A DNA stretch of 64,000 nucleotides. It comes from a virus. The position numbers were made by a program, and so were the translations under genes. The notes below the pieces were generated by a model. The model searched no databases, had not been told where the DNA came from, and saw only the letters and a program-made list of their open reading frames with translations. The first letter of the stretch is position 1, and every line of letters starts with the position of its first letter. The stretch lies in the IMG/VR virus record IMGVR_UViG_3300035661_000010; one strand, written 5' to 3'. Shown piece after piece: positions 1 to 16,195 of this stretch.

Positions 1-814
1 CGTAAAGCGGTACGTTCGTCAGATCGTGGGCGAGGAGACGAGGAACTGGAACCTGTACTGGATGGCCCTTCGTCCAGGCGAGCACTCGTACCGAGACATG
101 GTCGGAGCGATCGCCAGCTCGAGGAAGAAGTGGGAACACAAGAACGTCTGCCGTCCGTTCAAGGAGCAGCTGAAGGCGTTCTGGGACCTCAACGAGAGCA
201 ACTACGACTTCAAGCCCGGCGAGGAGCTGATCGAAGAAACGCGCGCCGCTCTGAAGCGTGACGACATGCCATTGATCTTCAAGCTCTTCGCGGCCATCGA
301 ATGCAAGGAAGAAGACGAGACGACCTTGGCTTTCGAACATGTCCTGTGTGAAGAGGTTGAGCATCGGTTCGAAGACATGAAGAATCTCAAGTTCTTCATG
401 GAGAAGTACCCGGGGTGGACGGGGCGCGACAATTGGGAGAATCGTCTCACCATGATCGAGATGCTCACCGGCGCATGGGACAAGACCATGAACGAGTTCA
501 TCCACGATCCAGAAGGGGCCTACGAGTACGATGACGGTGCGCTTCTGAAGAAGTTCCCAGACTACGTTTACGACAAGCATCTGATTCAGGGGCAACGTCG
601 CCTGGAGAAGTACTTCGACAAAATTGGTCCGATGAAACCTATGCCAGACAAGCTCGACATGCGCTGGTCAGGTCAATTTATGGGCGTCTCTTGGAGGTAT
701 GCTGCGTACGTCCAGTTCGGCGACAACTACGTCAACGCCAGGTGGGAGGACGTGAAGTGGTCGAAGGAGTTCTGGGAGTACACGCTGTCCATGCAGAAGG
801 CTTGTGAGGGGTAA
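1..814 (+). CDS. hypothetical protein, 5' truncated by the window edge
   Basis: The frame is open from the window start, upstream of the GTG at 26, to TAA at 814. No family recognised. It is the first gene of the modification cluster. Confidence 0.75.
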   Translation, partial: VKRYVRQIVGEETRNWNLYWMALRPGEHSYRDMVGAIASSRKKWEHKNVCRPFKEQLKAFWDLNESNYDFKPGEELIEETRAALKRDDMPLIFKLFAAIECKEEDETTLAFEHVLCEEVEHRFEDMKNLKFFMEKYPGWTGRDNWENRLTMIEMLTGAWDKTMNEFIHDPEGAYEYDDGALLKKFPDYVYDKHLIQGQRRLEKYFDKIGPMKPMPDKLDMRWSGQFMGVSWRYAAYVQFGDNYVNARWEDVKWSKEFWEYTLSMQKACEG

Positions 815-817
815 AGA

Positions 818-1561
818 ATGGAACGCGTTCACGGTCTTGTCATGGTGCAGCAGCCCCAGGTCTACCCGAAGTTGCACCGAATTCATCGGTGGCTTCGAGT
901 AGAGCGATACGTCTGCATGGACGACGCGCAAGTTGATCGTCCTGGTGGTATGGCTCGCTTCAGCTTCGTGCACAACAACGAGCCGCATCGAATCTCGATT
1001 CCGATTACGGGCGGCAAGCGGGTCGCATGCAACCAGGCTAAGGTTTATCTGGACATCGGCCACATGCGAACGATCAAGGAGCACGTTCGAGTCACCCTCG
1101 GCAAGATGAAGTACGGTCAGGAGGTGAGCGAGTTCGTTGCCAAAACGCTAGACATGGCTCCACACTCGCTGTCGTTCGCCGAATGGACGGAAGCATGCAT
1201 GACGTATCTGACGATCTTGCTGTGCGAGCTGCCTGGATTCCAGGGGCCAGCCCGGTTCCTGGAGTCGAGGATTCCGTCCGTAAAGACGTCCGGTCCATCG
1301 AATCGGATCCTGAGCGTCGTGAAGCTTGTTGGGGGTACCGCGTACTACACAGGCAGTCGCGGCTCGCCCAGCCGTGACTACCTTGACGAGGTGACCTTCG
1401 CCGCTGAGGGGATCAAGATCCTGGAGCAGCAGTTTTACACGAACGACTTTCCAGTTGGTCTTGGCGACCGGACGTTTCTGGAGACCTGGGCAAGGTATGG
1501 TCTGACAGGAATGCTGGACATCCTGAATCGCGGAACGCTCGACAACAAGGAAGTCACCTGA
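818..1561 (+). CDS. WbqC-like protein (putative glycine/aminoacyl transfer onto an amino sugar)
   Basis: N-terminal QPQVYP...YVCMDDAQ...ISIPI and C-terminal RILSVVKLVGGTAYYTG...DYLDEVTFAAEGIKI...MLDILNRG follow the WbqC family pattern, in divergent form. Confidence 0.7.
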   Translation: MERVHGLVMVQQPQVYPKLHRIHRWLRVERYVCMDDAQVDRPGGMARFSFVHNNEPHRISIPITGGKRVACNQAKVYLDIGHMRTIKEHVRVTLGKMKYGQEVSEFVAKTLDMAPHSLSFAEWTEACMTYLTILLCELPGFQGPARFLESRIPSVKTSGPSNRILSVVKLVGGTAYYTGSRGSPSRDYLDEVTFAAEGIKILEQQFYTNDFPVGLGDRTFLETWARYGLTGMLDILNRGTLDNKEVT

Positions 1562-3141
1562 TGCAACGACGCGTTCTCCTTGTGCCGCAGCTCGGACTTT
1601 CTCGCGCTCGGAGCGATTCTTCCTATCAGTTCATGATGGATCTGATTCGCTCATCGAGAGAGATGGATCGGAAGTTCTTCTTCTACATGATCCTGCCAGA
1701 GTGGGCCCAGGACCCGTGGCCTGATGAGCCGAACCAGTTCACGATCACGGTGCCGATGAACAAGGACTTCTGGATGAACGAGATGATCGGCGTTCCGGCT
1801 GAGCCTCTCGCAGAAGCCTTTTGTCGTCGTGGCGGCAAGTACATCGTCGACATGCTCTACACGGAGATGGTTCGACCAAGCTGGTACATGGGGCAGGTGA
1901 TCAGTGACTATCGGTCGCGTCACAGTTTGCCAGTGTTCATCACTGATCCGATCACCATCGGCGGCTGGGTAAATCGAACATGGGAGCACCGGGTGGCGAA
2001 CGCATACTCGTACCTGCACGGGTACCCGCTTGCCACGTCGACGTTCGAGGAGAATGGCTACCGAGAGCTGGTCACTGACTTCTTCAGGCCCGCGTACATC
2101 GACAAGTTCAACCAGCGCATCCACCGGGTGCCGGTCGCGATCGACATCGCCTCGTACCAGAAGGTTAGAGACGAGGAACAAGGCAACAAGCACGAGAAGG
2201 TCTCGCTCTTCTGCGGCATGCGATTCAACGAAGACAAAGGCATCAAGTTCATCATGGATGTCTTCCGTACGCTCTACGCCAGCGGCCGTGACATCTACGT
2301 GTGCTCGACGACGGGGACCGATCAGATCAAGGGCACTCAGCAGATCCCGGACAAGGACATGTCGATGCTCAAGACGATGAAGTTCGGATGCCCTCGCGAC
2401 GAGTACGTTCAAGAAGCTGCCAGGTGCCACGTCTTCTTGTCCGCGTCGAAAGTCGAGTCGTTCGCGATGCATATCGTTGAGCAACTCACGCTCGGCCTCA
2501 TCGGAGTCCTGCCAAATGCTCAGTGGGTATGGGACTGGATCCCGAAGGAGTATCCGTTCGTCTACGAGCCTGGCGATCGCGTCGAGGCGTACACGATGAT
2601 CTCATGGGTCATGGATAACTACGAGCGGGCCTACGAGATGGCCCGACCGTTCATGGACTATGTCGCGAAGGCTTACGACTCGAAAGAATCCTCTAAAGCG
2701 ATCTTTGATGCGTTCAACCAGAGGATCGACGAGCGATTCGTTGACTACACGAAGAAGCCCCTGCGCTTCTCGAAAGGTGGCAAGTTCCGGTACCCGTTCC
2801 GCCTTGAGGTCTGTGACGCAGCAGATTCACTGGGCGAGAGCTTCTCGATGCCGCAGCTGCTCCAGGTGCTCAAGGCGCGGATGAAGGGCACAGACGTCGG
2901 CGTCTTCACCAAGCTCGGAGGACCGAGACTGGGCGTGCCTACGCTCTACGACATTCGGATGATGTTGGAGTCGTACGGTTGGACGGATGCGTGCGACGGA
3001 CCCAAGGTCAGGTTCGTGCGCGGGGACAACGTCATCGTTCCGAGCCACGCCTACGCAGATCAGATCGCTGCTGCCAAAGCAGGAAAGATTGCCCACGCCG
3101 CTGAAGCTGCTGCCGACGAAGAGGAGGATCTCGATGTATAA
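1561..3141 (+). CDS. GT-B fold glycosyltransferase (GT4/group 1-like) with C-terminal extension
   Basis: Contains CGMRFNEDKG (GRxxxxKG-like) and HVFLSASKVESFAMHIVEQLTLG (EX7E motif). Confidence 0.85.
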   Translation: MQRRVLLVPQLGLSRARSDSSYQFMMDLIRSSREMDRKFFFYMILPEWAQDPWPDEPNQFTITVPMNKDFWMNEMIGVPAEPLAEAFCRRGGKYIVDMLYTEMVRPSWYMGQVISDYRSRHSLPVFITDPITIGGWVNRTWEHRVANAYSYLHGYPLATSTFEENGYRELVTDFFRPAYIDKFNQRIHRVPVAIDIASYQKVRDEEQGNKHEKVSLFCGMRFNEDKGIKFIMDVFRTLYASGRDIYVCSTTGTDQIKGTQQIPDKDMSMLKTMKFGCPRDEYVQEAARCHVFLSASKVESFAMHIVEQLTLGLIGVLPNAQWVWDWIPKEYPFVYEPGDRVEAYTMISWVMDNYERAYEMARPFMDYVAKAYDSKESSKAIFDAFNQRIDERFVDYTKKPLRFSKGGKFRYPFRLEVCDAADSLGESFSMPQLLQVLKARMKGTDVGVFTKLGGPRLGVPTLYDIRMMLESYGWTDACDGPKVRFVRGDNVIVPSHAYADQIAAAKAGKIAHAAEAAADEEEDLDV

Positions 3142-3403
3142 GCTCGGGGAGAGAAAGCTGACCAGTACGCAGTACGAGACGTTGAAAGCGATTGATCAGT
3201 ACATCAAGACGATGGGGCATGCGCCCACGCATCATGAGCTCGCCGAGGTCATGAGGCTTCCGAATGCGCGGGCCGTAGCGAATCGTATCGACGCGCTCGT
3301 CAACAAGGGTTACCTGGATCAGACGAAGTTTCAGCCACGAGGGATTCGACCCTCGAAGAAGGCAACGTCCGAGTATCCAGAGCTGGGAAGAATTGCATCA
3401 TGA
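3134..3403 (+). CDS. LexA-type winged-HTH DNA-binding protein with no peptidase domain
   Basis: LTSTQYETLKAIDQYIKTMGHAPTHHELAEVMRL...IDALVNKGYL...PRGIR matches the LexA N-terminal domain. ATG at 3134 follows a GGAGG RBS. Confidence 0.8.
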   Translation: MYKLGERKLTSTQYETLKAIDQYIKTMGHAPTHHELAEVMRLPNARAVANRIDALVNKGYLDQTKFQPRGIRPSKKATSEYPELGRIAS

Positions 3404-4503
3404 GACCGAGTCGCAGTGACATCGAGCAGATCTTCGAAGGACGTCGCACCGTTCTGTACGCGCACGACCTCCGAGAGAGCCTGCTCATGGACAACGTGTC
3501 CCCATTGAGCTGCGACTTCACGCTTTCGGATGCTTGCCAGCACAAGTGCCACTTCTGCGTCGACGATCGCAACGAGGTTTCTGGCCCGATCATGTCCGAG
3601 GAGGACGCCTTTCGGATCTTGACGCAGCTTCGCAAGCTTGGCGTGATGAGCGTGAACTTCGAAGGCGGAGGCGAGCCAACCATCGCTCCCGCTTTCGTGG
3701 CGGCCATGCGCCATGCTCACGGCAGCGGGATGCACGTCGGGCTCATCACGAACGGCGGCATGCTTCACAAAGAGGAGATTGCAAACACGCTCCTCGACTG
3801 CGCACGCTACGTGCGCATCAGTCTCGATGCGGTGTCCCCGGAGACTCACGAGACGAGTCACGGCGTGAAGGGGCAGTTCAACAAGATCGTCGAGTCCATC
3901 AAGGAGCTCGTTCGACGTCGAGACGCGAAGACCTCGTCGCGGTCACCGTACGAAAAGCTTCCGGTGATCGGACTTGGCTACCTCATCGACGAGAACACGT
4001 TCCAGGGCATGCACCACGCCTTGGCACTTGGGGAGCATACGGGTGTCGACTACGTGTCGTATCGACCCATGCACAGCGACAAGAAGTATGGTGGGTACTA
4101 CCTTCGAGACGACATGAACTTCGCGCACTCGCAGGCGTTGAAGAGGGTCTCCGAAGTGGAGGGTGGTTCGCGAGTCTACGCAGCGATCGACTGGCCCACC
4201 TCGAAGTATGTGCCCACCAAGAAGTGTTTTGCTCACCGAGGCAAGATCACGGTAGGAGCGACGGGCGACGTCTACACGTGCTGTAACAAGCGGTACAACC
4301 AGGACTACAGCTTCGGTCAGCTCAGGCCTGACGTGCCGCTCGAGCGCCTATGGAGCGGGCCGAAGCGCAAGGACGTCATCAAGCGCCTGGAGAACGCCCT
4401 TCAGGACATGAGCCAACACTGCTCCTCTTGCAACAGCGACGATCTGAATCGAACGTATGTGGAGATGAAGCGTCCGAACCTGCATCACCGCTTCATGGGT
4501 TGA
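3400..4503 (+). CDS. radical SAM enzyme with SPASM/twitch domain
   Basis: Has CQHKCHFC (CxxxCxxC), GGGEP, ITNG and RISLD motifs, plus C-terminal C...GDVYTCC...CSSC. Confidence 0.9.
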   Translation: MRPSRSDIEQIFEGRRTVLYAHDLRESLLMDNVSPLSCDFTLSDACQHKCHFCVDDRNEVSGPIMSEEDAFRILTQLRKLGVMSVNFEGGGEPTIAPAFVAAMRHAHGSGMHVGLITNGGMLHKEEIANTLLDCARYVRISLDAVSPETHETSHGVKGQFNKIVESIKELVRRRDAKTSSRSPYEKLPVIGLGYLIDENTFQGMHHALALGEHTGVDYVSYRPMHSDKKYGGYYLRDDMNFAHSQALKRVSEVEGGSRVYAAIDWPTSKYVPTKKCFAHRGKITVGATGDVYTCCNKRYNQDYSFGQLRPDVPLERLWSGPKRKDVIKRLENALQDMSQHCSSCNSDDLNRTYVEMKRPNLHHRFMG

Positions 4504-4621
4504 AGATGGAGAAGCAGACGTCGTTGAACCTGGACTCGCAAGAGTCGATCGACATCATGACTCGCGAGGAGTTTGGGTACGCGAGAGCAGCGCTGCATAC
4601 CCAACGGAGCTTCCGCTCTCA

Positions 4622-5095
4622 ATGAACGGAGCGGTCTTCTCGGAGTCCGAGCACTATCGGTACCGATTGTGGCGTGTCTGGTCGAAGACGAAGGGTCGAG
4701 TCCTGTTCGTCATGCTCAATCCGAGCACGGCAGACTTCAAGAAGAACGACCCTACGGTTCGAAAGTGCATCATGTACGCCCAAAAGTGGGGCTATGGATC
4801 GGCCGAGGTCGTGAACATCTTCGCCTGGAGGTCTACGGACCCGAAGGCTCTCTACGACGCCAAGGACCCGGTCGGACCTGAAAACGATCGTCACATCCTC
4901 CAGGCCGCGGGCAACGCGCAGAAGATCATCTGTGCCTGGGGTGCTCACGGCGCCCTCAAAGGCCGAGGTCACAACGTGCTGCGCATGCTTCGTGATGACG
5001 GGTACCAGGTACAGGCTCTCCATCGAACGAAGGATGGACAGCCCGGACATCCCTTGTATCTCGCTGGAAGTGCGGTACCTGTCGACTTTCTATGA
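4622..5095 (+). CDS. DUF1643 family protein
   Basis: Motifs YRYRLWRVW, FVMLNPSTAD, DPTVRKC, VVNIFAWRSTDP, ICAWG and PGHPLY. Confidence 0.85.
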   Translation: MNGAVFSESEHYRYRLWRVWSKTKGRVLFVMLNPSTADFKKNDPTVRKCIMYAQKWGYGSAEVVNIFAWRSTDPKALYDAKDPVGPENDRHILQAAGNAQKIICAWGAHGALKGRGHNVLRMLRDDGYQVQALHRTKDGQPGHPLYLAGSAVPVDFL

Positions 5096-5376
5096 AAGCT
5101 GACCAGGTCGTCTGTCCACGCTGTCTCGCGAACCACGGCCACAAAGCACTCGGATGCGCTACGCCACACACGCATGCCCACATGATCTGTGGGACGTGCA
5201 ACTGGTCGTGGACGACCTACGACGTCTCATACCTGAAGCTGGAGAACGTGTTCGAGAGGTTCAGGAACGGACTCGATCCGGAGCCTGTCTTCGAGAAAAA
5301 CGACGGAACGAAAGACGAGTCGAAGTGGTGGGTGAACGACGACGGTTCGCATAGAGCGAACCCCGACGTGAGGTAA
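5092..5376 (+). CDS. small Zn-ribbon hypothetical protein
   Basis: CPRC...CGTC; coupled by an ATGA overlap. Confidence 0.55.
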   Translation: MKADQVVCPRCLANHGHKALGCATPHTHAHMICGTCNWSWTTYDVSYLKLENVFERFRNGLDPEPVFEKNDGTKDESKWWVNDDGSHRANPDVR

Positions 5377-5388
5377 GGACGAAGAGCC

Positions 5389-5841
5389 ATGGCAAGATGG
5401 AACGTTGGCGAGAAAAACGGCCAATGGAAGGGTGGTCGAACCGTAACCAAGGACGGGTACGTCTTGATCATGGTCGGAAAAGACCATCACCTCGCAGACG
5501 TTCGTGGATACGCGTACGAACATCGCCTCGTTGCGGAGAGAAAGCTTGGAAGAAGACTTCGTCGCGATGAAGAGGTTCATCACGACGATGAAAATAAGTC
5601 GAACAACAGTCCTGGCAACCTAGTCGTGACACGCGGCACCAAGAGACGACTTCGACATTTTGTTCATCATCGCACCAAGCCTTCTGTGCTGAAGAGACCA
5701 GAACAAAGAAATCGCACTGTGCTCTGCGCTTGCGGTTGCAAGACGGAGATGAAGAGGTTCGACAAGTACGGTCGACCAAGACGATTCATGCCAAGTCACA
5801 ACATGAGAGTGAGGGCACGATGGGCCAAAAAACGTCCATAG
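5389..5841 (+). CDS. HNH homing endonuclease
   Basis: WKGGR...GYAYEHRLVAERKLGRRL...EVHHDDENKSNNSPGNL; C-terminal CACGC. Confidence 0.85.
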   Translation: MARWNVGEKNGQWKGGRTVTKDGYVLIMVGKDHHLADVRGYAYEHRLVAERKLGRRLRRDEEVHHDDENKSNNSPGNLVVTRGTKRRLRHFVHHRTKPSVLKRPEQRNRTVLCACGCKTEMKRFDKYGRPRRFMPSHNMRVRARWAKKRP

Positions 5842-6632
5842 AGTGGTGCGACCATACGTTCAACCCGTGGGCTGGATGTGCGAAGATCAGTCCAGCTTGT
5901 AAGTCATGTTATGCGGAAAACATCTCGCATAGGTTCGGCTGGAATGTATGGGGCACCGAGTCCCCTCGAAGGTTCTTCGGCGATAAGCACTGGAACGAAC
6001 CGGTGAAGTGGGACCGCGCCGTCAAGGATCCCAACAAAAGACCCAAGGTCTTCTGCGCGTCGATGGCTGATGTATTCGAGCTGCGGAGCGATCTTGATGT
6101 CCACCGCGATCGCCTGTGGAAGCTGATCGAAGCTACGCCTGGCCTCGTTTGGCTGCTGCTCACGAAGCGTCCAGAGAACGTGAAGAAGATCTATGGAGAG
6201 ACGCTACGAGCCAACATGTGGCTCGGTACGACGGTCGAGAACCAGAAGTACACGTCACGCATCGAGAGCCTGTTGAGAATCAACGCTCCGGTGAGGTTTC
6301 TGTCATGTGAGCCGATGCTGGGCCCGATCGACTTCAACACGTGCGGCATTTGGCATCCGGGAATGCATGACATGTACCTGGAGGGCGTTCACTGGGTCAT
6401 AGCAGGAGGAGAGTCTGGGCCAGGAGCTCGTCAGCCAAGCCTCGACTGGTATCGAACGATCCGCGATCAGTGTGGGTACGCCAAAGTGCCGTTCTTCTTC
6501 AAGCAGCACGGTAACTGGGCGCCTGGAGCGAACGGGCTTGTGCGGCTCCGGAGTAAGAAAGACGGAGGCCGCCTACTGGATGGCGTCGAACACAACGGCG
6601 TCCCCCTCGACCAGAACGGGAATCCGCGATGA
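5820..6632 (+). CDS. DUF5131 (phage Gp37/Gp68) family protein
   Basis: TSIEWCDHTFNPWAGCAKISPACKSCYAE, VFCASMADVF, LLTKRPEN, FLSCEPMLG, WVIAGGESG and VPFFFKQ. Start reassigned to ATG 5820. Confidence 0.9.
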   Translation: MGQKTSIEWCDHTFNPWAGCAKISPACKSCYAENISHRFGWNVWGTESPRRFFGDKHWNEPVKWDRAVKDPNKRPKVFCASMADVFELRSDLDVHRDRLWKLIEATPGLVWLLLTKRPENVKKIYGETLRANMWLGTTVENQKYTSRIESLLRINAPVRFLSCEPMLGPIDFNTCGIWHPGMHDMYLEGVHWVIAGGESGPGARQPSLDWYRTIRDQCGYAKVPFFFKQHGNWAPGANGLVRLRSKKDGGRLLDGVEHNGVPLDQNGNPR

Positions 6633-7072
6633 ACCGCAACGGCATGGAGGAGTGGGAGGTCAACGTTCAGCAACGTCCGGCCCGCGAGAACCACCACCTT
6701 GTCTGTCCTGAGTGCGGCGCGAAGCTCGTTCTTCGTTCTCGTAGGGACGGGAAGTGGTTCTACGGATGCGAGATGTGGATGGACACGAAGTGCGACGGCG
6801 GGATCGGGGCGCATCCAGACGGCACACCGCTCGGGATCCCGGCGAACAAGGAGACGAAGAAGGCGAGGGTCGAGGCCCATCGATCCTTCGATCGCCTTTG
6901 CACCGAAGGGAAGATGTCGAAAGGCAAAGCCTACAAGTGGATGAAGAAGACGTTGCAGCTCGCGAACGGCATGAGCCACATCGCGATGATGACGAAGAGT
7001 CAGTGCGAGGCACTGGTGGCGGCAGTAGACACGAAGCTCGGGAAGAAGGAACAGCATGTCGACGACAGATGA
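6629..7072 (+). CDS. zinc-finger protein (DUF3268/ssl1498-like)
   Basis: CPECG...FYGC...CDGGIGAHPDGTPLGIPA...RVEAHRSFDRL...HIAMM. Confidence 0.7.
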   Translation: MNRNGMEEWEVNVQQRPARENHHLVCPECGAKLVLRSRRDGKWFYGCEMWMDTKCDGGIGAHPDGTPLGIPANKETKKARVEAHRSFDRLCTEGKMSKGKAYKWMKKTLQLANGMSHIAMMTKSQCEALVAAVDTKLGKKEQHVDDR

Positions 7073-8696: not shown

Positions 8697-8765
8697 CCTA
8701 CGTTCGTTGCATGCAAGCGTCACCGCGTTGTAGAGTTTCCTTCGTACCTACCGAAGGAACGATCG

Positions 8766-9563
8766 ATGTACAGCTCGAATGGCGTTGCACTATCAAAGTC
8801 GTGCACCGCACCCATGGTCGACAGCAGTGACCTGCTCGGGGATCAAGAGGCGCTTCGCAAGCGCTACGCAGAGGACGGCTACCTGAAGTTCTCGGGTCTG
8901 CTCCCAAAGAAGCGGGTACTCGGTATCCGGAAGCTGTACTTCGACCTGTTCAACTTCAAGTCGGATGGGTGTCCTTCACATGGAACGCCAGGCCATCCAG
9001 CTTTTTCGTTTGTTCGGTCGGAGGTCTTCGATTCGTTCGCCAAGCCAGAGGAGATGTTTCAGATCTCTGAGGCGCTCTTGCAGATAGATTCAGTGGTTCC
9101 GCTCAAGCGGAGACCGCTCCGTCACTTCAAGAAAGGACACGCTGCCTCGCGGGCGCATGCGGATCTGAGCTACGTCGATCAGGGCACCAAGGACGTCGTC
9201 ACGTTCTGGGTGCCGATCGGGGACTGTCTCGCAGATACGGGGTCTCTCACGTACCTCGAAGGATCGCACAAGATCGGCATCGACAAGCTGCGTCAGACGA
9301 TGAGCGATCGCACCGACAGTCCGAATGACAAGCGGCGCCTCAGCCACGATCTGCAAGCACTTGCGGAACGAACGGGAAGGAAATGGCTGGTCAGCGACTT
9401 CGAGGCTGGAGACGTGGTCTGCCACTCTCCGTACATCATCCATGCTTCGCTCGACTGTCGCACCGATGAACCGCGGCTATCCACGGACCTTCGCTTCGTG
9501 CGGCTCGGAGACGAGATCGACCCGCGCTGGTTGAAAGACTGGCGAGCAGACGACGGTTACTAG
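8766..9563 (+). CDS. phytanoyl-CoA dioxygenase (PhyH)-family 2OG-Fe(II) dioxygenase
   Basis: YAEDGYL, HxD (HADLSY), TFWVPIGD...GSLTYLEGSH, AGDVVCH...IIHAS and RLSTDLRF. Confidence 0.88.
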   Translation: MYSSNGVALSKSCTAPMVDSSDLLGDQEALRKRYAEDGYLKFSGLLPKKRVLGIRKLYFDLFNFKSDGCPSHGTPGHPAFSFVRSEVFDSFAKPEEMFQISEALLQIDSVVPLKRRPLRHFKKGHAASRAHADLSYVDQGTKDVVTFWVPIGDCLADTGSLTYLEGSHKIGIDKLRQTMSDRTDSPNDKRRLSHDLQALAERTGRKWLVSDFEAGDVVCHSPYIIHASLDCRTDEPRLSTDLRFVRLGDEIDPRWLKDWRADDGY

Positions 9564-9638
9564 CTATAGATCGCTCGTTTTCGAACAGAGACGGTTGTAT
9601 GAATCGGTCATGGACAAGAGTCCGGACAGGTTCTTCTG

Positions 9639-10424
9639 ATGAGAGTTCTGGTAGTCGCTCCGCATGCGGATGACGAAGTGCTCGGAGCTGGTGGGTACAT
9701 GGCGAAGCTCGCCAACGCTGGTCACGAGGTCTTCGTCTTGATCATGTGCGATCGTTCAGAGGGGCATTCGTACGATCCGCAGTTGATCGGATTCCTTCGC
9801 GATTGCGCCCTGAAAGCAAACGCGATTCTTGGAACGAAAGCGGTGTTCTTCGCTCACCTTCGCGAGGAACGACTTGACACGTCACTTTCGGACGTCATCG
9901 TTCCGATTGAGAAGCACATTGCCATGATCCGTCCATCACTTGTGATGCTGCCGCATCGAGGCGACGTGAACCAAGATCATCGAGCGGTCTTCGAGGCTGG
10001 GCTTGTGGCCACGCGCACGCTCGGTAACTGGGAAGACAAGTACACCGAGAACGAGCTCCGCGGCGCCGCTTCTCCGTACAAGCAGAAGGAGAAGACGGCT
10101 CGACGTTACAACGTGCAGAAGGTCCTCTGTTACGAGGTCCCCTCAACGACAGAGCAAGCTCCGCCAGGGTGGGGGTTCAATCCGAATGTCTTCGTCGACA
10201 TCACCGACACTCTGGAACAAAAGGTAAGAGCTCTCGCTTGCTACACCAGCGAGACGGATGCCTTTCCGTTTCCTCGATCTCTCGAAGGTATGCGAGTGGT
10301 CGCTAGGTTCAGAGGTATGGCTGCCTCCTTCGAAGCCGCCGAGGCGTTCGAGTTGAAAAGGGAGATCGTGTTCACTACCAACGGAAGCAGTACGACGAAG
10401 AGTAAGGTGAAGAGGAAGCGATGA
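9639..10424 (+). CDS. PIG-L/LmbE family N-acetyl-sugar deacetylase
   Basis: VVAPHADDEVLGAGG, HRGDVNQDH, YEVPS, FVDITDTLEQKVRALACYTSE and AEAF. Confidence 0.92.
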   Translation: MRVLVVAPHADDEVLGAGGYMAKLANAGHEVFVLIMCDRSEGHSYDPQLIGFLRDCALKANAILGTKAVFFAHLREERLDTSLSDVIVPIEKHIAMIRPSLVMLPHRGDVNQDHRAVFEAGLVATRTLGNWEDKYTENELRGAASPYKQKEKTARRYNVQKVLCYEVPSTTEQAPPGWGFNPNVFVDITDTLEQKVRALACYTSETDAFPFPRSLEGMRVVARFRGMAASFEAAEAFELKREIVFTTNGSSTTKSKVKRKR

Positions 10425-10951
10425 GTGAAAAGATCGGAGAGTTCAGGATCTCGAACCTCGTTCCTGAGGACTACGCATCGATCATCTCTGTCGAGATATC
10501 GGCCTTCAGTGGAGACAAGGTGATGGGCGTCGAAAACATCGCGGACCTGTACGTGTACGACGGACTCAGGTTCTCGCTCAAAGCCACTGTGGACGACAGT
10601 GACATGGTTGGCTACATGCTCGTGCACGTGATGGCGGAGAACGAGAGTCGTCGCATGCTCTACCTGGCTGACTTCGCCGTCAGACCAGAGTTTCAACGCA
10701 TGAACGTCGGATGGCAGATGATGCGGTCGTTCATGTGCGCGATGAAAGAAGAGAGGGTTGTTACGCTCTTCGACATGGAGCTTGTCGAAGGCTCACACAA
10801 GATGATGGAGAAGCGTCGCGACGACATATCGAAGCTCGGGTGGGAGAAGCTGAGCGAGCACAAGCTCTCCGACTATCACGGCGATCAAGACCATGCCTGG
10901 TACCACCTGTACGCGCTCTGCCCGAAAGACACCGATGCTGGTTCAAGATGA
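10421..10951 (+). CDS. GNAT family N-acetyltransferase
   Basis: MVGYML...LYLADFAVRPEFQRMNVGWQMM (acetyl-CoA-binding motif A). Confidence 0.8.
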   Translation: MSEKIGEFRISNLVPEDYASIISVEISAFSGDKVMGVENIADLYVYDGLRFSLKATVDDSDMVGYMLVHVMAENESRRMLYLADFAVRPEFQRMNVGWQMMRSFMCAMKEERVVTLFDMELVEGSHKMMEKRRDDISKLGWEKLSEHKLSDYHGDQDHAWYHLYALCPKDTDAGSR

Positions 10952-11810
10952 ACACTTGGTGGACTCGCTCTTCCTCGATCTGAAAGAGAAGAACGCGCAG
11001 CACGTAGCGGACACCCTCTGGTATCGAAAGGCCATCACTGGTCGCGCCAAGCCGTTTGTGTTCATTGGTCGACAGAGTCATGTGTTCGCGTGGCAGCTCG
11101 AAAGCGGAGCCTCTGAAGTGTGGGGCGGCGAGACGTTCGTGGAGCAAGATGCGCTTCCGATGAACGAGGTCGACGCTTGTCAGTTCGTCGAGGAAATGCC
11201 GAAACCTTTTTGGTCGTTCACGTCTGGCGCCCATGAGATCTTGAAGCCAAAGCTCCAGGACGAGTACTCGTCGATGCGGATCGATCTTTGTCCATATCGA
11301 TCGATGGAAGAGTACGAGGCCACGGTCTGGTCGAGCAAGCGTCGCCGAAACCTGACTCAAGAACTTCGCCAGTACGACAGGTTCAGTAGATCGCTGTCGA
11401 CACTATTTGATGCGCGGGATCTGTCATGGTTGCTGGACCTGAATGCGACTGTGTCCATCAAGATGGGCGAGGTTCCGTACTACGAGAGTGGCAACAGGCT
11501 CGGAGGCTTGTGCAAGCTTCTCGGAACTGCGTCTGCGCTGGGATTCTATCGGTGCCTCAAGATCTACGATGGCGAGCGCCTCGCGGCGGCGGAAGTGTTT
11601 GTCGAGCATGCGCCGACCAGATCGATCCTGTCATTCATGGGGCACGCGCTTCCTGAATACTCAGGACTCGGAAAAGTCCTGTACAAAGAAGTGATCGCCA
11701 GAGCCATCAGCGTTGGAATCGAAACGGTCGACGTTGGAAATTACAAGAGCGACATCAAACTTCTGTTCAAGTATCGACCGCTGCCAACGTACGACGTGGA
11801 GATTGTGTGA
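10935..11810 (+). CDS. GNAT-fold protein (FemABX/BcsL-like acyl or aminoacyl transferase)
   Basis: IDL...SMEEYEATVWSSKRRRNL, YDGERLAAA and YSGLGKVLYKEVIARAISVGIETVDVG...K, the typical GNAT_6/Fem-like C-terminus. Confidence 0.7.
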   Translation: MLVQDEHLVDSLFLDLKEKNAQHVADTLWYRKAITGRAKPFVFIGRQSHVFAWQLESGASEVWGGETFVEQDALPMNEVDACQFVEEMPKPFWSFTSGAHEILKPKLQDEYSSMRIDLCPYRSMEEYEATVWSSKRRRNLTQELRQYDRFSRSLSTLFDARDLSWLLDLNATVSIKMGEVPYYESGNRLGGLCKLLGTASALGFYRCLKIYDGERLAAAEVFVEHAPTRSILSFMGHALPEYSGLGKVLYKEVIARAISVGIETVDVGNYKSDIKLLFKYRPLPTYDVEIV

Positions 11811-13189
11811 TGAAAAAGGTCTTTGTTACAGGAACATGGGGCCGACCGAACGGACTCGAAGCCAACATCTATCGTTCAACCAACGGAGACGCACTCGTTC
11901 GTCGATACCCGGACTTCGATGAGTACGACGTTTGGAAGAATGCACATACCACCGCGGATCACGATCCGTTTGGTGACGGCGAGAAGAGAGACTGGGCCAA
12001 GTACTACGGTCACATTGACTCGATGATCAAGAGCGGCAAATGGGACGCGATCATCTGCTGTTTCCTCGACGATGCCATCACTGGAGGGATGTCCAAGTAC
12101 GCGGAGAAGATTCCAACGCTGTGCGTGAACAGAGAAGCGGCCAGGCTCGAGGACGACCGATGGTTTGCTCGATCGGTTACGTCGAAGTACGGCGTGGCCG
12201 CTTCTGCAATGGAGCTCGTCCGGACAAAGCAGGAGGCGCTTGCCTTCCTGAGTAACGACTGCCCGTGGGAGGGATGCGTTGTGAAACTGCTCGACTCCAC
12301 GACACATGAGGTCGTTGCGGAGATCTACGATACGAAGAAGGAAGCCATCTCGGCCATCGAGTCGCGGCCAGACGCTTGGTTTCCGAGCGTCATCGAAGAG
12401 AAGCTGTCTGGTCACGAAGTCGCGTTCTCGGTGCTCGTCAGCCACGAAACAGACCAGATCATCCCGATGGTCACCGATTTCGAGTACACGCGGTTGGCCA
12501 CCGGAGACCTGGGTCGAGAGACGAGCGAGATGGGCTCGCACGACATCGCTGGAGTCTCTGACAGGGTGCTCCAGGAAATCTTTTGGCCAATGATGCCTTG
12601 GTTCAAGGAGGTCGGCTACACGGGCTGGCTCGATGCGAGCTGCATGTACAATCCGAAGACAGACACGCTAACGGTTTTCGAGTTCATGACCAGACTTGGA
12701 AGTAGCCAGTTCGAGCTGGCGATGACACTGCTCGGCACGGACTTCTCGGAAATCGTCCAGAGGATGCACCGAAAGGCCCTTCGTCCAGACGATGTCCGGT
12801 GGCGGTACAAGCACGGTGTAGGCGTTGTGGTCTGCGACAGCTACGCGATGACCGGAGAAAGTGACCGCCGACACATTGTTTCCGGTCCGGTGAAGGAACT
12901 GATCTACGGTCGCGTCTTCGCCGACTACGGCTTCCAGACGCTGTCGAGAATGAACTGTGTCTTCGACAAGCAGGAACGCATGGTGACGAGAGGCGATCGC
13001 GTCTACAACGCCATTGGAGCTGGTGACACGTTTCCCATCGCGAAGAAGCATGCCTACAGCGTTGCTCGGTTCTGCAAGTTCACGGGCGCGTACTACAGGA
13101 CAGACATCGGCTATCGCTGGGAAGACGATGAGGCGAAGGGCGCGCTGGGTGAGAGCGGGGTCCTTCCGAGAGGCTGGTACCGAGAATGA
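11807..13189 (+). CDS. divergent PurD-like (GAR synthetase fold) ATP-grasp amide ligase
   Basis: AARLEDDR, IEEKLSGHE, EYTRLATGDLGRETSEMG (compare PurD DHKR...GDxGPNTGGMG), EFMTRLG (compare EFNxRFG) and C-terminal TRGDRV...AY...YYRTDIG. Confidence 0.8.
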   Translation: MMKKVFVTGTWGRPNGLEANIYRSTNGDALVRRYPDFDEYDVWKNAHTTADHDPFGDGEKRDWAKYYGHIDSMIKSGKWDAIICCFLDDAITGGMSKYAEKIPTLCVNREAARLEDDRWFARSVTSKYGVAASAMELVRTKQEALAFLSNDCPWEGCVVKLLDSTTHEVVAEIYDTKKEAISAIESRPDAWFPSVIEEKLSGHEVAFSVLVSHETDQIIPMVTDFEYTRLATGDLGRETSEMGSHDIAGVSDRVLQEIFWPMMPWFKEVGYTGWLDASCMYNPKTDTLTVFEFMTRLGSSQFELAMTLLGTDFSEIVQRMHRKALRPDDVRWRYKHGVGVVVCDSYAMTGESDRRHIVSGPVKELIYGRVFADYGFQTLSRMNCVFDKQERMVTRGDRVYNAIGAGDTFPIAKKHAYSVARFCKFTGAYYRTDIGYRWEDDEAKGALGESGVLPRGWYRE

Positions 13190-13764
13190 AGGTCAAGATT
13201 TCGTTATGGAATCCGCTCGAAGACGTGATCGAAACGTTCATGTTTTTGCTTGGATTGTCGGGCTCCATCGTCTTCATGCGTCACAGGTGGCTGGCGCTTG
13301 CTGCCGCGCTGATTGGTGCCCTTGGAGCCGCGAGACTCCTGACCCAGGCCATCGGGCGTTCGCGTCTGCGCAACAGCATGCGTTACGTCACAGTCCACGG
13401 GCTCATGATCGTTGGGAACCGGGTACCCTCTCCAGAGTACGTGGAGCAGGTGATTTCGGAGACGTTCGAGTGGCTCACCGAAAACGCACGGTTCGAGGAG
13501 AAAGACTTCGAGAGACTGCTTCATGGGTGTGTTCTCGAAGTCATCGACGCACCGTTGCCGGAGTGGTGCGACCTCACATGCCCGTGGGCATTGCTTCCAT
13601 GGGACTCAGGCAAGTGGATGCGTTGCGGAATGAACGATGGGCGCAAGCTACCGGCTCTGCCGCATGTTTTGTTACATCGCGCGATGTACGTGAAGTATGG
13701 GATGATCGAGTCAGTTGATGTGCATGAAGCGGCCGATGACGTCGGCTTCGATAGGACGGGCTGA
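13186..13764 (+). CDS. hypothetical membrane protein
   Basis: Two N-terminal hydrophobic segments; ATGA-coupled. Confidence 0.55.
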   Translation: MKVKISLWNPLEDVIETFMFLLGLSGSIVFMRHRWLALAAALIGALGAARLLTQAIGRSRLRNSMRYVTVHGLMIVGNRVPSPEYVEQVISETFEWLTENARFEEKDFERLLHGCVLEVIDAPLPEWCDLTCPWALLPWDSGKWMRCGMNDGRKLPALPHVLLHRAMYVKYGMIESVDVHEAADDVGFDRTG

Positions 13765-13766
13765 AC

Positions 13767-14795
13767 ATGGCGAATGAAAAGAAAAAGACGCAGCCCGTAT
13801 CTACGGACCCGCCGGCGCCTGCTACCGAAACGTTGCCGTCAGCTCCCATGCCGCCCACTCCAGCGTTCGACATGGCGATGCCCCCAATTCCGTCACTGGC
13901 CGGGGCAAGTCTTCCGGCCTTTGCGATGACTCGCATAGAGACGGTCAAGACTGAGGTTCACAACGCTGAGCCTGTGACCGAGAGCAAGTCGCTCAAGGTG
14001 TGGGACGTTCCGGTCGACCTCATCGATCCAAACGTAGACAACCCGAACGAGATGGACGAGGAGACCTTCAACGTTCTCGCAGAAGAGATCGACGAGCAGC
14101 ACGAAGGTTCACCTGGCTTCATCGAACCGATTCACCTGGTCCGCTTGAACAACGGTCGATTCCAGCTCGTTGGCGGAGAGCACCGATGGCGAGCAGTGAA
14201 GGCTCTCGGTAGGAAGACGATTCCAGCCTTGATCTTCGAGGGAGGCAATTGGGACAAGGAGGAGTTCCGGGAGTTCATGCTCTTCCGCTTGAACCACCTC
14301 CGCGGCAGTTTGAACACCGACAAGTTCCTGAAGCTGTACCAGAAGCATGCCGAGAAATATGGCAACGAGCAGCTTCAAAGGCTCTACGCCTTCACCGACA
14401 AGGACTACTGGGCAAGCCTCACGGGAGGCACGAAGCAGGCGCTCAAGGACATGGGCATGTCGCAGGAGATGCTCAACGACTTCGACGAGAAGAGCAAAGA
14501 GGTAAAGACGGTCGACGACCTCGCCTCCATCCTGAATGGCTTGTTCTCGAAATACGGGAACGACCTTCGGTACAACTTCATGGTCTTCGTTTTCGGCGGC
14601 AAAGAGCATCTCATGATCCGAATGGACAAGGAGATGACTGCCCAGATGGAGAAAGTGAAGAGGTTCTGTCGAGACAATCAGATCGACGTGAACCTGCTCT
14701 TCAAGCCAGTGGTGAGTCGCATCAAGGACTTCGCAGAAGATCCAGAGACGCTGGCCAGGCTGAAGTCGACCGGTGAAGTCGACGGCTTCAAGTGA
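13767..14795 (+). CDS. ParB/Srx N-terminal domain protein
   Basis: VPVDLIDPNVDNPNEM...GFIEPI...FQLVGGEHRWRAVKALG...IPA; N-terminus is Pro-rich. Confidence 0.88.
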   Translation: MANEKKKTQPVSTDPPAPATETLPSAPMPPTPAFDMAMPPIPSLAGASLPAFAMTRIETVKTEVHNAEPVTESKSLKVWDVPVDLIDPNVDNPNEMDEETFNVLAEEIDEQHEGSPGFIEPIHLVRLNNGRFQLVGGEHRWRAVKALGRKTIPALIFEGGNWDKEEFREFMLFRLNHLRGSLNTDKFLKLYQKHAEKYGNEQLQRLYAFTDKDYWASLTGGTKQALKDMGMSQEMLNDFDEKSKEVKTVDDLASILNGLFSKYGNDLRYNFMVFVFGGKEHLMIRMDKEMTAQMEKVKRFCRDNQIDVNLLFKPVVSRIKDFAEDPETLARLKSTGEVDGFK

Positions 14796-16147: not shown

Positions 16148-16195
16148 GTCAGAGATAGGATGCATCAGGGGCAAGAAAGCCTCAATGGAGGATGC

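Follow-up and report, generated by a model that had tools for sequence, protein, structure and literature searches.

In an established phage system, a C5-methylase, a TET dioxygenase and a glycosyltransferase together produce 5-GlcNAc-oxymethylcytosine (PMC8256090). Phage GT-B enzymes resembling BshA and MshA glycosylate DNA (bioRxiv 10.1101/2023.12.21.572611). ParB proteins without a DNA-binding domain activate phage thymine dioxygenases, whose commonest neighbours are glycosyltransferase, ParB and terminase genes (PMC13229309). The gene block described here was also compared with bacillithiol synthesis (BshA/B/C), through its BshA-like glycosyltransferase fold, BshB1-like PIG-L de-N-acetylase and BshC-like WbqC fold, and with mycothiol synthesis, through the match of the glycosyltransferase to the MshA fold and the presence of a PIG-L, an amide ligase and a GNAT. 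With a probability of roughly 0.6, the block is a composite of a conserved amino-sugar cassette following bacillithiol/mycothiol logic and of a methylase insertion. A previous interpretation from the letters alone (the sequence-only reading) had proposed a DNA hypermodification pathway opening with methylation and oxidation of the base. Its sugar pathway was kept, as a conserved one; the methylate/oxidise opening steps and the DNA-oxidising dioxygenase found no support.

The window (the whole stretch of 64,000 nucleotides analysed) comes from an uncultured large phage. Every gene previously listed was found by Pfam on the + strand, in one co-oriented block where many starts and stops share 1-17 bases (Table 1). 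The list was right, but the block begins further upstream and also contains the LexA-type HTH, DUF1643, HNH, DUF5131 and DUF3268 genes. The conserved cassette comprises 14 genes over about 19 kb; it starts some 5 kb before the window and ends at position 14795. The upstream part, seen in contig L007 of the same phage, carries DegT, a second ParB (ParB1) and a second WbqC; the gene of the 386-aa protein is complete at 8837-9997 of this contig. Seven contigs (L001-L004 and L007-L009) were 100% identical to the window and were thus considered as one phage found in several samples, not as independent conservation.

Table 1. Genes of the block, with their positions in the window
Feature	Coordinates	Strand	Match or remark
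MgsA_C/SWIM-like lead, C-terminal 270 aa of a 386-aa protein	2-814	+	Conserved cassette member
WbqC-like protein 2	818-1561	+	PF08889, E 1.9e-10
GT4-type retaining GT-B glycosyltransferase	1561-3141	+	AlphaFold2 fold; core cassette gene
LexA-type HTH protein, 89 aa	3134-3403	+	PF01726
Radical SAM/SPASM enzyme	3400-4503	+	PF04055 5.7e-17, PF13186 1.2e-8
DUF1643	4622-5095	+	Pfam; putative insertion, first part
Hypothetical protein, 94 aa	5092-5376	+	Putative insertion, first part
HNH endonuclease	5389-5841	+	Pfam; putative insertion, first part
DUF5131	5820-6632	+	Pfam; putative insertion, first part
DUF3268 zinc ribbon	6629-7072	+	Pfam; putative insertion, first part
C5 cytosine DNA methyltransferase	7056-8696	+	PF00145 1e-18; putative insertion, second part
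PhyH-family Fe(II)/2OG dioxygenase	8766-9563	+	PF05721 3e-14
PIG-L/LmbE-family de-N-acetylase (BshB1-like)	9639-10424	+	PF02585 6.8e-20; core cassette gene
Small GNAT acetyltransferase	10421-10951	+	PF00583 8.6e-6
Fem-like (Acetyltransf_6) GNAT-fold transferase	10935-11810	+	PF13480 8e-6
PurD-like ATP-grasp ligase	11807-13189	+	GARS_A 2.3e-12, GARS_C 1.2e-8
192-aa protein	13186-13764	+	One or two weakly hydrophobic N-terminal helices
ParB2, ParB N-domain protein	13767-14795	+	PF02195 7.7e-11, phrog_26387 1.3e-49

Conserved synteny was found in a diverged relative (L098/L103), in which 14 genes with 24-68% protein identity to those of the window phage lie in nearly the same order: a 339-aa protein (paired with the 308-aa protein of the window phage by position alone), DegT, ParB1, WbqC, a 405-aa protein, glycosyltransferase, WbqC, radical SAM, PhyH, PIG-L, Fem, PurD-like, a 193-aa protein and ParB2. 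Identities were 51% for the glycosyltransferase, 33% for WbqC, 48% for the radical SAM enzyme, 42.5% for PhyH, 68% for PIG-L, 29% for Fem, 32% for the PurD-like ligase, 24% for the 193-aa protein and 52% for ParB2. The homologue of the 386-aa protein is upstream of the glycosyltransferase (28% identity). The synteny did not extend to the C5-methylase, DUF1643, 94-aa, HNH, DUF5131, DUF3268 and GNAT genes, none of which was found by BLAST among the proteins of this relative. Since the genes of 4622-8696 are missing there and the radical SAM gene abuts PhyH, this segment is, as judged by gene content, an insertion between the two, an ordinary phage DNA methylase island and not the first step of the pathway. 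In 80 IMG/VR loci, searched up to 10 kb from ParB2, the genes of 4622-7072 gave no match except one to HNH. The methylase was absent from L103, from the 80 IMG/VR loci and from three cultured cassette phages.

The order methylate, oxidise, glycosylate does have elements in its favour. The methylase contains all the catalytic motifs (FGG, SPPC93, ENV139 and GNAV502), with four VADPR repeats in the target-recognition region, and its best PDB matches were to DNMT1, with no match to CmoX. It ends 70 bp before PhyH, whose HxD...H triad is intact (H131xD133, with His226, as read by eye, the probable second His). The methylase would make 5mC, PhyH would convert it to 5hmC and the glycosyltransferase would add a HexNAc, subsequently deacetylated, amino-acylated and capped; the 5-GlcNAc-oxymethylcytosine system is a precedent. 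This route is nevertheless considered highly improbable: the methylase-PhyH adjacency is not kept in the diverged relative, none of the three cultured phages that share the core cassette carries a C5-methylase, and the dioxygenase is not of the TET/JBP type. Its nearest PDB entries (PtlH, SnoN, PhyH and leucine hydroxylase) are small-molecule hydroxylases. Its relatives with 40-48% identity are chromosomal bacterial genes of sugar or lipid clusters, adjoining YdjC or CE4 deacetylase, SDR, DegT and glycosyltransferase genes and not DNA enzymes. The dioxygenase is thus no longer regarded as a DNA oxidase and is predicted to act on a sugar or acyl moiety. The radical SAM/SPASM enzyme contains a CX3CX2C motif (residues 46-53) and, towards the C-terminus, five Cys; its PDB matches are generic, yet include the sugar-acting DesII and BlsE. 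We infer that it is a conserved tailoring enzyme.

The glycosyltransferase matched Glycos_transf_1 at only E 6e-4 in Pfam. Its AlphaFold2 model (pLDDT 86.6) has a clear GT4 GT-B fold with a C-terminal extension of about 150 aa, and was matched by Foldseek to BshA, MshA, HepE and PglA (E 1e-14 to 1e-11). E307 is invariant in a 44-sequence family alignment (A5), and E299/E307, invariant in a 4-sequence alignment (A4), are read here as the probable GT4 EX7E motif. The model of WbqC-like protein 2 (pLDDT 80.7) resembles BshC in fold only: VIA gave Z 10.9 to BshC 4wbd over 218 aligned aa, followed by class I LysRS (Z 9.4), and the top Foldseek match was BshC (probability 0.97, E 9.6e-3), with no match at E 0.001 or better. 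The protein is predicted to be a HUP-class (BshC/class I aaRS-like) ATP-dependent ligase. We know of no in vitro reconstitution of the activity of BshC itself. Since the WbqC model resembles BshC, the logic of the cassette fits bacillithiol or mycothiol synthesis, and the mycothiol analogy previously drawn was strengthened.

PIG-L contains an AHADD motif and its best NCBIfam match was BshB1 (1.8e-13, below the cut-off). It is 68-78% identical in L103, L100 and L006, and homologues were found in phages DLP5, VH2_2019 and DanielleIgnace and in 18 IMG/VR loci. The coupling of PIG-L, Fem-like and PurD-like genes was confirmed, as they are adjacent in the window and in L103 and remain together on fragments L006, L097 and L100. 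The Fem-like protein, a weak Pfam match (PF13480, 26.5 bits for a cut-off of 22), belongs to a very rare family (1.84 billion proteins yielded only 15 representatives at E<=1e-3); in L006, L097, L100 and L103 its gene always adjoins PIG-L and/or the PurD-like gene. The PurD-like protein was rejected as a purine enzyme, having no GARS_N domain and a TIGR00877 score of 113 bits (1.2e-32) for a cut-off of 288. It has only two close relatives (50% and 34% identity), all others being true PurD (24-30%); L006 carries two paralogues. Homologues of the small GNAT were found neither in L103 and L006 nor in the IMG/VR loci, and it appears specific to this phage.

Each chemical step of the pathway is deduced from family membership. 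Most likely, an acceptor receives an amino sugar from the cassette enzymes; this sugar then loses its acetyl group and is coupled to amino acids. DegT would supply an aminated nucleotide sugar and the glycosyltransferase, whose fold is modelled, would transfer a HexNAc-type sugar onto a hydroxyl of the acceptor. The N-acetyl group would then be removed by PIG-L, as suggested by its family and motif, and the freed amine would receive amino acids from up to three kinds of amide-forming enzymes (the WbqC pair, the PurD-like and the Fem-like proteins). Because of the gene neighbourhoods of their homologues, PhyH and the radical SAM/SPASM enzyme are predicted to tailor the sugar or the acyl group. 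In this phage only, the GNAT may cap an amine.

The product could be a small soluble molecule, either a thiol-like compound of low molecular weight or one resembling aminoglycosides, as for BshA/B/C and MshA-D. The BshA/MshA-like GT4, BshB1-like PIG-L, BshC-like WbqC, amide ligase and GNAT all fit this. Aminoglycoside pathways use GT4, LmbE deacetylase, DegT, radical SAM and PhyH-type dioxygenase enzymes. We consider it improbable, as cysteine specificity is unsupported and as ParB and MgsA_C-like genes, along with packaging genes in relatives, accompany the cassette. The core is common to phages of Actinobacteria, Vibrio and Stenotrophomonas, hosts that to our knowledge have no single thiol system in common.

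Host envelope components (glycolipid, lipid-linked glycan, LPS or teichoic acid) were considered as the acceptor, as PhyH homologues also adjoin MMPL, MlaC/MlaA, LPG_synthase_TM and GT2 genes, WbqC is defined in Pfam as a family of O-antigen clusters, and small hydrophobic proteins occur both in this cassette and in that of DLP5. GlcN-lipid (GPI-type) synthesis likewise begins with a GT4 enzyme followed by PIG-L. Cationic aminoacyl-amino-sugars would then alter the surface charge and, for example, exclude superinfecting phages. LPS modification was suggested by the authors of the DLP3 study (PMC7326821). An envelope acceptor is unlikely, however: genes for a flippase, a polyprenyl-phosphate transferase or a Gtr-type protein are missing, and the cassette, with its two ParB proteins and MgsA_C-like protein, lies among DNA-metabolism and packaging genes. 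The hydrophobic segments of the 192-aa protein are marginal (Kyte-Doolittle peaks 1.63 and 1.74), without conservation in L006 or L100. This protein had no Pfam or PHROG match; the gene is where it had been placed, but 'membrane protein' is a weak label for it.

ParB2 contains a GEHRWRA motif, no HTH was detected in it and its closest PDB entry is Noc. By sequence, it is the orthologue of the ParB following the glycosyltransferase in other phages (35% identity in DanielleIgnace, 31% in DLP5, 25% in VH2_2019 and 52% in L098). These three cultured phages carry orthologues of the glycosyltransferase, adjoining ParB2, and of PIG-L; DLP5 also has DegT and VH2_2019 an annotated WbqC-like gene. DLP3 is counted with DLP5 among the phages with the core cassette. 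ParB2 has 340 relatives in IMG/VR. Of the IMG/VR loci, 59 matched ParB2 well; the glycosyltransferase family was present in 42 of them, mostly immediately upstream, and smaller subsets also contained PIG-L, DegT, sugar 4,6-dehydratase or WbqC. A terminase was present in 47 of the 59, and ParB2-family genes also occur without any glycosyltransferase. ParB2 is thus tied closer to the terminase than to the glycosyltransferase, and its presence may reflect packaging and not modification.

In most relatives, the cassette is immediately upstream of ParB2, a protein of about 221 aa, TerL and portal, a position compatible with glycosylation of capsid or tail proteins with the tailored amino sugar. Freeman et al. 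reportedly described in 2023 virion glycosylation by phage-encoded glycosyltransferases in mycobacteriophages. Virion proteins are a doubtful acceptor, since about 45 kb separate the portal gene of this phage from the cassette, which does not adjoin the terminase either, a structural gene is never consistently within it, and its DNA-associated proteins would be left unexplained.

Phage DNA, modified after replication in a ParB-linked manner and not through 5mC/5hmC, is tentatively proposed as the acceptor, at clearly less than even odds. The small hydrophobic proteins and the lipid-type clusters of the PhyH homologues argue against it. Neither the 64-kb window, which leaves out at least 95 kb of the phage, nor eight cassette-bearing genomes gave a ThyA-type or TET/JBP enzyme, PF12851 being used without a positive control, so that none of the known ways of obtaining a hydroxylated base is available. 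The DNA acceptor is favoured by the two ParB proteins, the MgsA_C-like protein and the HTH protein inside the cassette, and by the precedents cited above of DNA-glycosylating GT-B enzymes and of ParB proteins activating thymine dioxygenases. The ORF at 2-814 had no Pfam match; its nearest Atlas cluster is viral (MgsA_C 43%, SWIM 21%, score 0.91), with a related representative matching MgsA_C at E 3e-6, and homologues of the 386-aa protein were found in 5 IMG/VR loci. BLAST of the HTH protein against those of L098, L100 and L097 found no match. Among the phages with the core cassette, DLP3 DNA resists 15 of 15 restriction enzymes and DLP5 DNA is cut by only 4 of 36 (PMC7326821, PMC5834331).

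All the genes that the sequence-only reading had assigned to the block were recovered on the + strand, with overlapping stops and starts. It had missed a LexA-type HTH gene, DUF1643, an HNH endonuclease, DUF5131 and DUF3268. The block is truncated by the edge of the window, and the genes upstream encode a 308-aa protein, a DegT aminotransferase, an HTH-bearing ParB, a first WbqC paralogue and a 386-aa protein. The HNH gene was considered as a strain-specific insertion; this was rejected, as the sister contigs match the window at 100% identity and gene calling had simply skipped it there. From its genes, the window comes from a tailed phage that is uncultured (T4-type portal, prohead protease, ThyX, dNMP kinase, Tad2-like gene). 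The longest contig carrying genes of this phage was 159 kb, so its genome is at least 159 kb. Its DNA was found in four microbial-mat or sediment metagenome DNA datasets, all possibly source samples; no RNA dataset was among those containing it. Contigs from five samples matched the window at 100% identity and are therefore not independent evidence. No match to the window was obtained by megablast against the phage collection, nor by single-protein scans of IMG/VR with the PurD-like and PhyH proteins.

Coordinates of the cassette genes and of other features (kb offsets are relative to ParB2)
Feature	Sequence	Coordinates	Strand	Remark
Tail of the 386-aa protein	window	2-814		ORF cut by the window edge
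WbqC (modelled)	window	818-1561	+	
Glycosyltransferase (GT)	window	1561-3141	+	
LexA-type HTH	window	3134-3403		
rSAM/SPASM	window	3400-4503	+	
Insertion into the cassette	window	4622-8696		
C5-methylase	window	7056-8696	+	
Variable region of the methylase	window	7870-8365		four VADPR-ending repeats (residues 295, 339, 390, 431)
PhyH	window	8766-9563	+	
PIG-L	window	9639-10424	+	
GNAT	window	10421-10951	+	
Fem-like	window	10935-11810	+	
PurD-like	window	11807-13189	+	
ParB2	window	13767-14795	+	
240-aa protein	window	14914-15636		strong N-terminal hydrophobic helix
Papain-family cysteine peptidase	window	16160-17101		PF00112, E 3e-8
Tad2-like (Thoeris anti-defence 2)	window	within 14836-38452		PF11195, E 1.9e-25
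T4-type dNMP kinase	window	within 14836-38452		PF21448
YfbR-like 5'-deoxynucleotidase	window	within 14836-38452		
Response-regulator receiver domain protein	window	within 38904-64000		PF00072, E 1e-9
Second HNH endonuclease	window	within 38904-64000		HNH_3
T4-type portal	window	59562-61448		
PhyH homologues	bacterial loci L010, L011, L013	~8001-8864		
PhyH homologue	bacterial locus L012	~8001-8891		
Third PurD-like protein	contig L005 (227 kb)	10001-11551		34% identity, 516 aa
~221-aa protein, then ~650-aa protein	IMG/VR ParB2 loci L017-L096	~+0.9 to +3.5 kb		

The ParB alignment yielded 340 IMG/VR relatives. Eighty loci were analysed, and the 59 with a good ParB2 match form the base of the counts. 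A member of the GT family (~480-530 aa) was present at 42 of the 59, mostly directly upstream and on the same strand. A terminase-like gene of ~650 aa lay ~1.5 kb downstream of ParB2 (47/59), with a ~221-aa protein between the two (41/59). The 308-aa protein was found at 23 of these loci, PIG-L and DegT at 15 each and a sugar 4,6-dehydratase at 12. WbqC-like genes occurred in few of the 80 loci (six by profile search), and C5-methylase, PhyH, GNAT, Fem-like, PurD-like and rSAM genes were absent from all 80. From this layout and these counts, the cassette of the window is a strongly enlarged form of a variable sugar cassette, whose usual place is between the 308-aa protein and ParB2.

ParB2 also occurs at loci that have no GT and so is not cassette-specific. 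It stays with the cassette in the window and in a diverged relative (contig L098), though no terminase follows: it is succeeded by the 240-aa hydrophobic protein and, shortly after, the papain-like peptidase in the window, and by unrelated genes in L098. At the IMG/VR loci, the ~221-aa protein is a coiled-coil or HTH protein and the ~650-aa protein has no Pfam match. The latter is assigned by position as the large terminase, its DLP5 counterpart being annotated TerL. ParB2 may belong to the packaging module of a large and diverse siphophage lineage, which also encodes RecA, RuvC and a PD-(D/E)XK nuclease upstream.

In genomic terms, the cassette is closest to the ParB-linked GT/PIG-L cassettes found in DLP5-type phages, which are uncharacterised. 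The cultured phages grouped by this cassette are DLP5/DLP3, Vibrio VH2_2019/PG28/V-YDF132 and DanielleIgnace. Orthologues of GT, PIG-L and the ParB_N-only protein ParB2 were detected in cultured phages with E values of 1e-8 to 1e-43, and were reciprocal with DanielleIgnace, DLP5 and VH2_2019. The gene order is GT, ParB-like and methyltransferase with PIG-L nearby in Arthrobacter phage DanielleIgnace; PIG-L, WcaG, WecE, methyltransferase, GT, ParBc and TerL in Stenotrophomonas DLP5; and BshB1-like, methyltransferase, WbqC-like, GT and a ParB annotated 'noc' in Vibrio VH2_2019. DegT is also present in DLP5, and VH2_2019 has an annotated WbqC-like gene and a homologue of the upstream 308-aa protein. 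DLP5-type cassettes span ~6-7 kb directly before ParB2, the ~221-aa protein and TerL, whereas the cassette of the window spans ~19 kb, does not adjoin a terminase and has in addition rSAM, PhyH, Fem-like, PurD-like and GNAT genes, a second WbqC and a second ParB. No paper assigning a function to the DLP5-type cassettes was found in a literature search. The cultured phages DLP3, DLP5, VH2_2019 and DanielleIgnace allow direct tests of the core cassette.

The expanded form was found in a second phage. An exhaustive profile search of 1.84 billion proteins with the Fem-like protein returned 15 representatives, through which a 71-kb contig from a diverged phage (L098/L103) was identified. Its genes encode, in order, a 339-aa protein, DegT, a ParB with HTH, WbqC, a 405-aa protein, GT (51% identity), two small ORFs, WbqC (33%), a 286-aa protein, rSAM/SPASM (48%), PhyH (42.5%), a 94-aa ORF, PIG-L (68%), five ORFs without assignment, Fem-like (29%), PurD-like (32%), a 193-aa protein (24%) and ParB2 (52%). 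Fourteen genes are common to both phages, in nearly the same order. Counterparts of DUF1643, the 94-aa ORF of the window, HNH, DUF5131, DUF3268, the C5-methylase and GNAT are missing from this contig, in which rSAM directly precedes PhyH. Because the genes lying between rSAM and PhyH in the window are absent where rSAM abuts PhyH, this stretch is an insertion into the cassette. Conserved synteny, which had been proposed as a check of the whole pathway, held for the sugar-tailoring genes and failed for the C5-methylase and GNAT. The PIG-L/Fem-like/PurD-like sub-module is kept on three short contigs (L006, L097, L100), and L006 carries a second PurD-like paralogue. New are the enlarged cassette of 14 genes, which includes rSAM, PhyH, Fem-like and PurD-like members, its conservation in a second phage and evidence for the methylase being an insertion. 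The conserved pathway is in this way separated from an inserted methylase island. The VADPR repeats of the methylase bring to mind the target-recognition domains arranged in tandem in multispecific phage methylases.

The sequence-only reading had the C5-methylase and the dioxygenase produce a 5-hydroxymethylcytosine, which the GT would then glycosylate. Published phage clusters combine a C5-methyltransferase or a thymine dioxygenase (5mYOX/TET-JBP) with a GT, with or without ParB (Burke 2021, PMC8256090; Pyle 2023, bioRxiv 10.1101/2023.12.21.572611; O'Toole 2026, PMC13229309). Two features that define the methylase/5mYOX/GT clusters are missing from the cassette. No match to PF12851 (TET/JBP) was found among ~90 window ORFs scanned, in which PhyH is the sole dioxygenase. 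The C5-methylase was absent from L098/L103, from the 80 IMG/VR ParB2 loci and from the three cultured cassette phages, so its coupling with an oxygenase and GT is not kept across relatives. The proposed route is therefore unsupported.

The 5-carboxymethylcytosine-glycine pathway of CmoA/CmoX/CmoY (PMC12783734) was also considered. It shares with the cassette a C5-methyltransferase homologue with an SPPC motif, which is present in the C5-methylase, an ATP-dependent ligase possibly adding glycine and a ParB nearby. CmoX enzymes are marked by this motif plus a carboxylate-binding Arg, and by a CmoA encoded in the same genome. The pathway differs in that its ligase is AsnB-like and AMP-forming, whereas the cassette ligase is a PurD-type ATP-grasp, and in that the methylase is not conserved alongside the ligase. 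Among PDB chains, the methylase matched DNMT1 only and had no detectable similarity to any CmoX chain. No member of the CmoA family was found among the window ORFs, which represent an incomplete genome. With the DNMT1-only match and no CmoA among these ORFs, this candidate finds no support.

The dioxygenase belongs to the PhyH family (PF05721) and its HxD...H triad is intact. Its nearest solved relatives (PtlH, SnoN, PhyH and a leucine hydroxylase) are small-molecule hydroxylases. More than 100 bacterial homologues were found, ~75 of them at 40-48% identity. The three bacterial neighbourhoods analysed showed two arrangements. In the first, the homologue adjoins genes for an SDR epimerase/dehydratase, a YdjC or CE4 deacetylase, DegT, GT2 and MMPL/Mla/LPG_synthase_TM proteins. 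This arrangement, we assume, resembles the hopanoid hpn clusters. In the second, it adjoins a CE4 deacetylase, DegT and an MGDG-synthase-like GT. The homologues of L010-L013 lie in conserved clusters of two kinds, one with SDR, YdjC deacetylase, PhyH, MMPL, MlaC, GT2, LPG_synthase_TM, DegT and MlaA, the other with SDR, CE4 deacetylase, PhyH, DegT and the MGDG-synthase-like GT. From their gene content, these clusters look like uncharacterised amino-glycolipid (hopanoid-like) pathways. In either case, the family would act on a sugar conjugate alongside a deacetylase, an aminotransferase and a GT, exactly the company that PhyH has in the phage cassette. No link between PhyH and DNA oxidation was found in the family, the solved relatives or the homologue neighbourhoods. 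These lipid-type contexts, together with small hydrophobic proteins encoded inside the cassette, count against DNA as the acceptor of the sugar. An envelope lipid or glycan is considered a rather unlikely acceptor.

The GT was modelled with confidence (pLDDT 86.6, 44-sequence alignment) and has a GT4 GT-B fold. Its best structural matches were BshA, MshA, HepE, PglA and a mycobacterial mannosyltransferase, BshA and MshA standing among many equally good GT4 matches. E307 is invariant across the family, and E299/E307 are read as the GT4 EX7E motif. A profile search of the ~150-aa C-terminal extension against the PDB gave nothing significant. When 44 members of the family were scanned with Pfam, the sole matches were to Glycos_transf_1-type families and GT4-conflict. 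The isoelectric points of the family (5.4 to 9.1) were uninformative. A predicted GT-ParB2 complex, run without controls, scored 0.00, below the mark, which counts neither for nor against an interaction. According to the model, the fold would fit the published DNA GTs resembling BshA and MshA, and would equally fit lipid, protein or small-molecule acceptors. A virion protein as acceptor is judged no likelier than an envelope component, and a soluble metabolite improbable.

PIG-L matched PF02585 above the cut-off (6.8e-20) and contains the AHADD metal/catalytic motif. Its best NCBIfam match was BshB1, but at 50.8 bits the score stays well under the equivalog cut-off (182.5). The WbqC model (pLDDT 80.7) was nearest to BshC (Z 10.9, 218 aa aligned, rmsd 4.0); the next matches were class I lysyl-tRNA synthetase and further class I aaRS or nucleotidyltransferase domains; its sequence had no match among PDB chains. 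The model points to WbqC proteins as putative ATP-dependent ligases with amino sugars as substrates. From the GT and WbqC folds, the core cassette probably has the BshA/BshB/BshC enzyme series, at the level of fold.

Only GARS_A and GARS_C (no GARS_N) were detected in the PurD-like protein, which scored 113 bits with TIGR00877 (cut-off 288) and is 24-30% identical to real PurD. No other purine-synthesis family was found among the window ORFs scanned. Its identification as PurD (GAR synthetase) fails on domain architecture, equivalog cut-off and gene context. A third PurD-like protein is encoded on L005, a very large phage-like contig, beside a JmjC/cupin protein, an MT-A70 methyltransferase fragment, Ku and NUDIX, a context unlike that of the cassette. 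FemABX transferases have a FemAB-type GNAT fold and use aminoacyl-tRNA as donor. The Fem-like protein matched PF13480 just above the cut-off (8e-6) and had no match in the PDB. Its family is extremely rare, and a word-based homologue search returned only the protein itself.

By analogy, bacillithiol/mycothiol synthesis would be the closest functional counterpart of the cassette. In BshA/B/C and MshA/B/C/D, enzyme types occur in the same order: GlcNAc is transferred by a retaining GT4 and its amine is released by a PIG-L/LmbE enzyme, after which an ATP-dependent ligase couples an amino acid to it and a GNAT caps the product. The cassette differs in that all its scores are far under the equivalog cut-offs, in its additional DegT, rSAM, PhyH, PurD-like and Fem-like enzymes, and in being phage-encoded with ParB genes on both sides; cysteine as the added amino acid lacks support. 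Family membership, catalytic motifs and conserved co-occurrence were observed directly. On this basis, a HexNAc-type sugar, possibly further aminated via DegT, would be transferred by the GT to a hydroxyl of the acceptor and then de-N-acetylated by PIG-L. The WbqC, PurD-like and Fem-like enzymes would N-acylate it with amino acids, PhyH and rSAM would tailor the conjugate, and GNAT would cap it in the window phage only. The product could plausibly be a diamino sugar with di- or peptidyl-acylation, since two amines may be available and as many as four of the enzymes may form amides.

The cassette is a variant of the gene clusters with which phages modify sugars, and there is a genuine possibility that it involves new DNA chemistry. 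Phage DNA is put forward tentatively as the acceptor. Two ParB proteins, an MgsA_C-like protein and an HTH protein are encoded inside the cassette, which sits among recombination and packaging genes. DNA of DLP3 was uncut by 15 of 15 restriction enzymes and that of DLP5 was cut by only 4 of 36 (PMC7326821, PMC5834331), a resistance that speaks for DNA. So does the precedent of phage GT-B enzymes resembling BshA/MshA that glycosylate DNA (Pyle et al., bioRxiv 10.1101/2023.12.21.572611). HexNAc on DNA is established chemistry (Burke 2021; Pyle 2023; O'Toole 2026). Phage thymine dioxygenases are activated by ParB proteins without a DNA-binding domain, and their commonest neighbours are GT, ParB and terminase (O'Toole et al., PMC13229309), which also favours DNA. 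With the post-replicative DNA glycosylation clusters of phages, the cassette shares a GT-B enzyme similar to BshA and MshA, ParB proteins in which no DNA-binding domain is recognisable, the terminase neighbourhood of its relatives and accessory sugar-tailoring genes. It differs from them in its PhyH-type dioxygenase and in a methylase not conserved with it. Against DNA, searches of the window and of eight genomes with the cassette (six complete or estimated 100% complete) gave neither a ThyA-type nor a 5mYOX/TET-JBP enzyme, PF12851 being used without a positive control, and ParB2 is tied more closely to the terminase than to the GT. Deacetylation or amino-acylation of a DNA-borne sugar is not mentioned in Burke 2021, Pyle 2023 or O'Toole 2026.

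The most far-reaching reading, with a probability of about 0.3, is that a new class of DNA hypermodification is made by the cassette. It would be a cationic hexosamine, de-N-acetylated and amino-acylated, added after replication with the assistance of ParB-type proteins to an acceptor made by neither ThyA-type nor TET/JBP enzymes. If true, this would mean that glycosylation sites in DNA can be created or used by a route not yet known, and would account for the refractory DNA of DLP3 and DLP5. No sugar-based DNA modification known would be as elaborate as such an amino sugar bearing amino acids, which would also be the first without dependence on a hydroxymethylpyrimidine from a known enzyme. 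Both points matter for the evasion of restriction and defence and for enzymatic DNA labelling. With another molecule as acceptor, it would still follow that large phages carry complete bacillithiol-like amino-sugar pathways, and a function of the WbqC family as BshC-like ligases would be suggested.

Downstream of the cassette, the window also encodes the Tad2-like protein, the T4-type dNMP kinase and the YfbR-like nucleotidase. The response-regulator protein and the second HNH endonuclease are found among late-region genes. The dNMP kinase and the nucleotidase together could hint at an unusual nucleotide pool.
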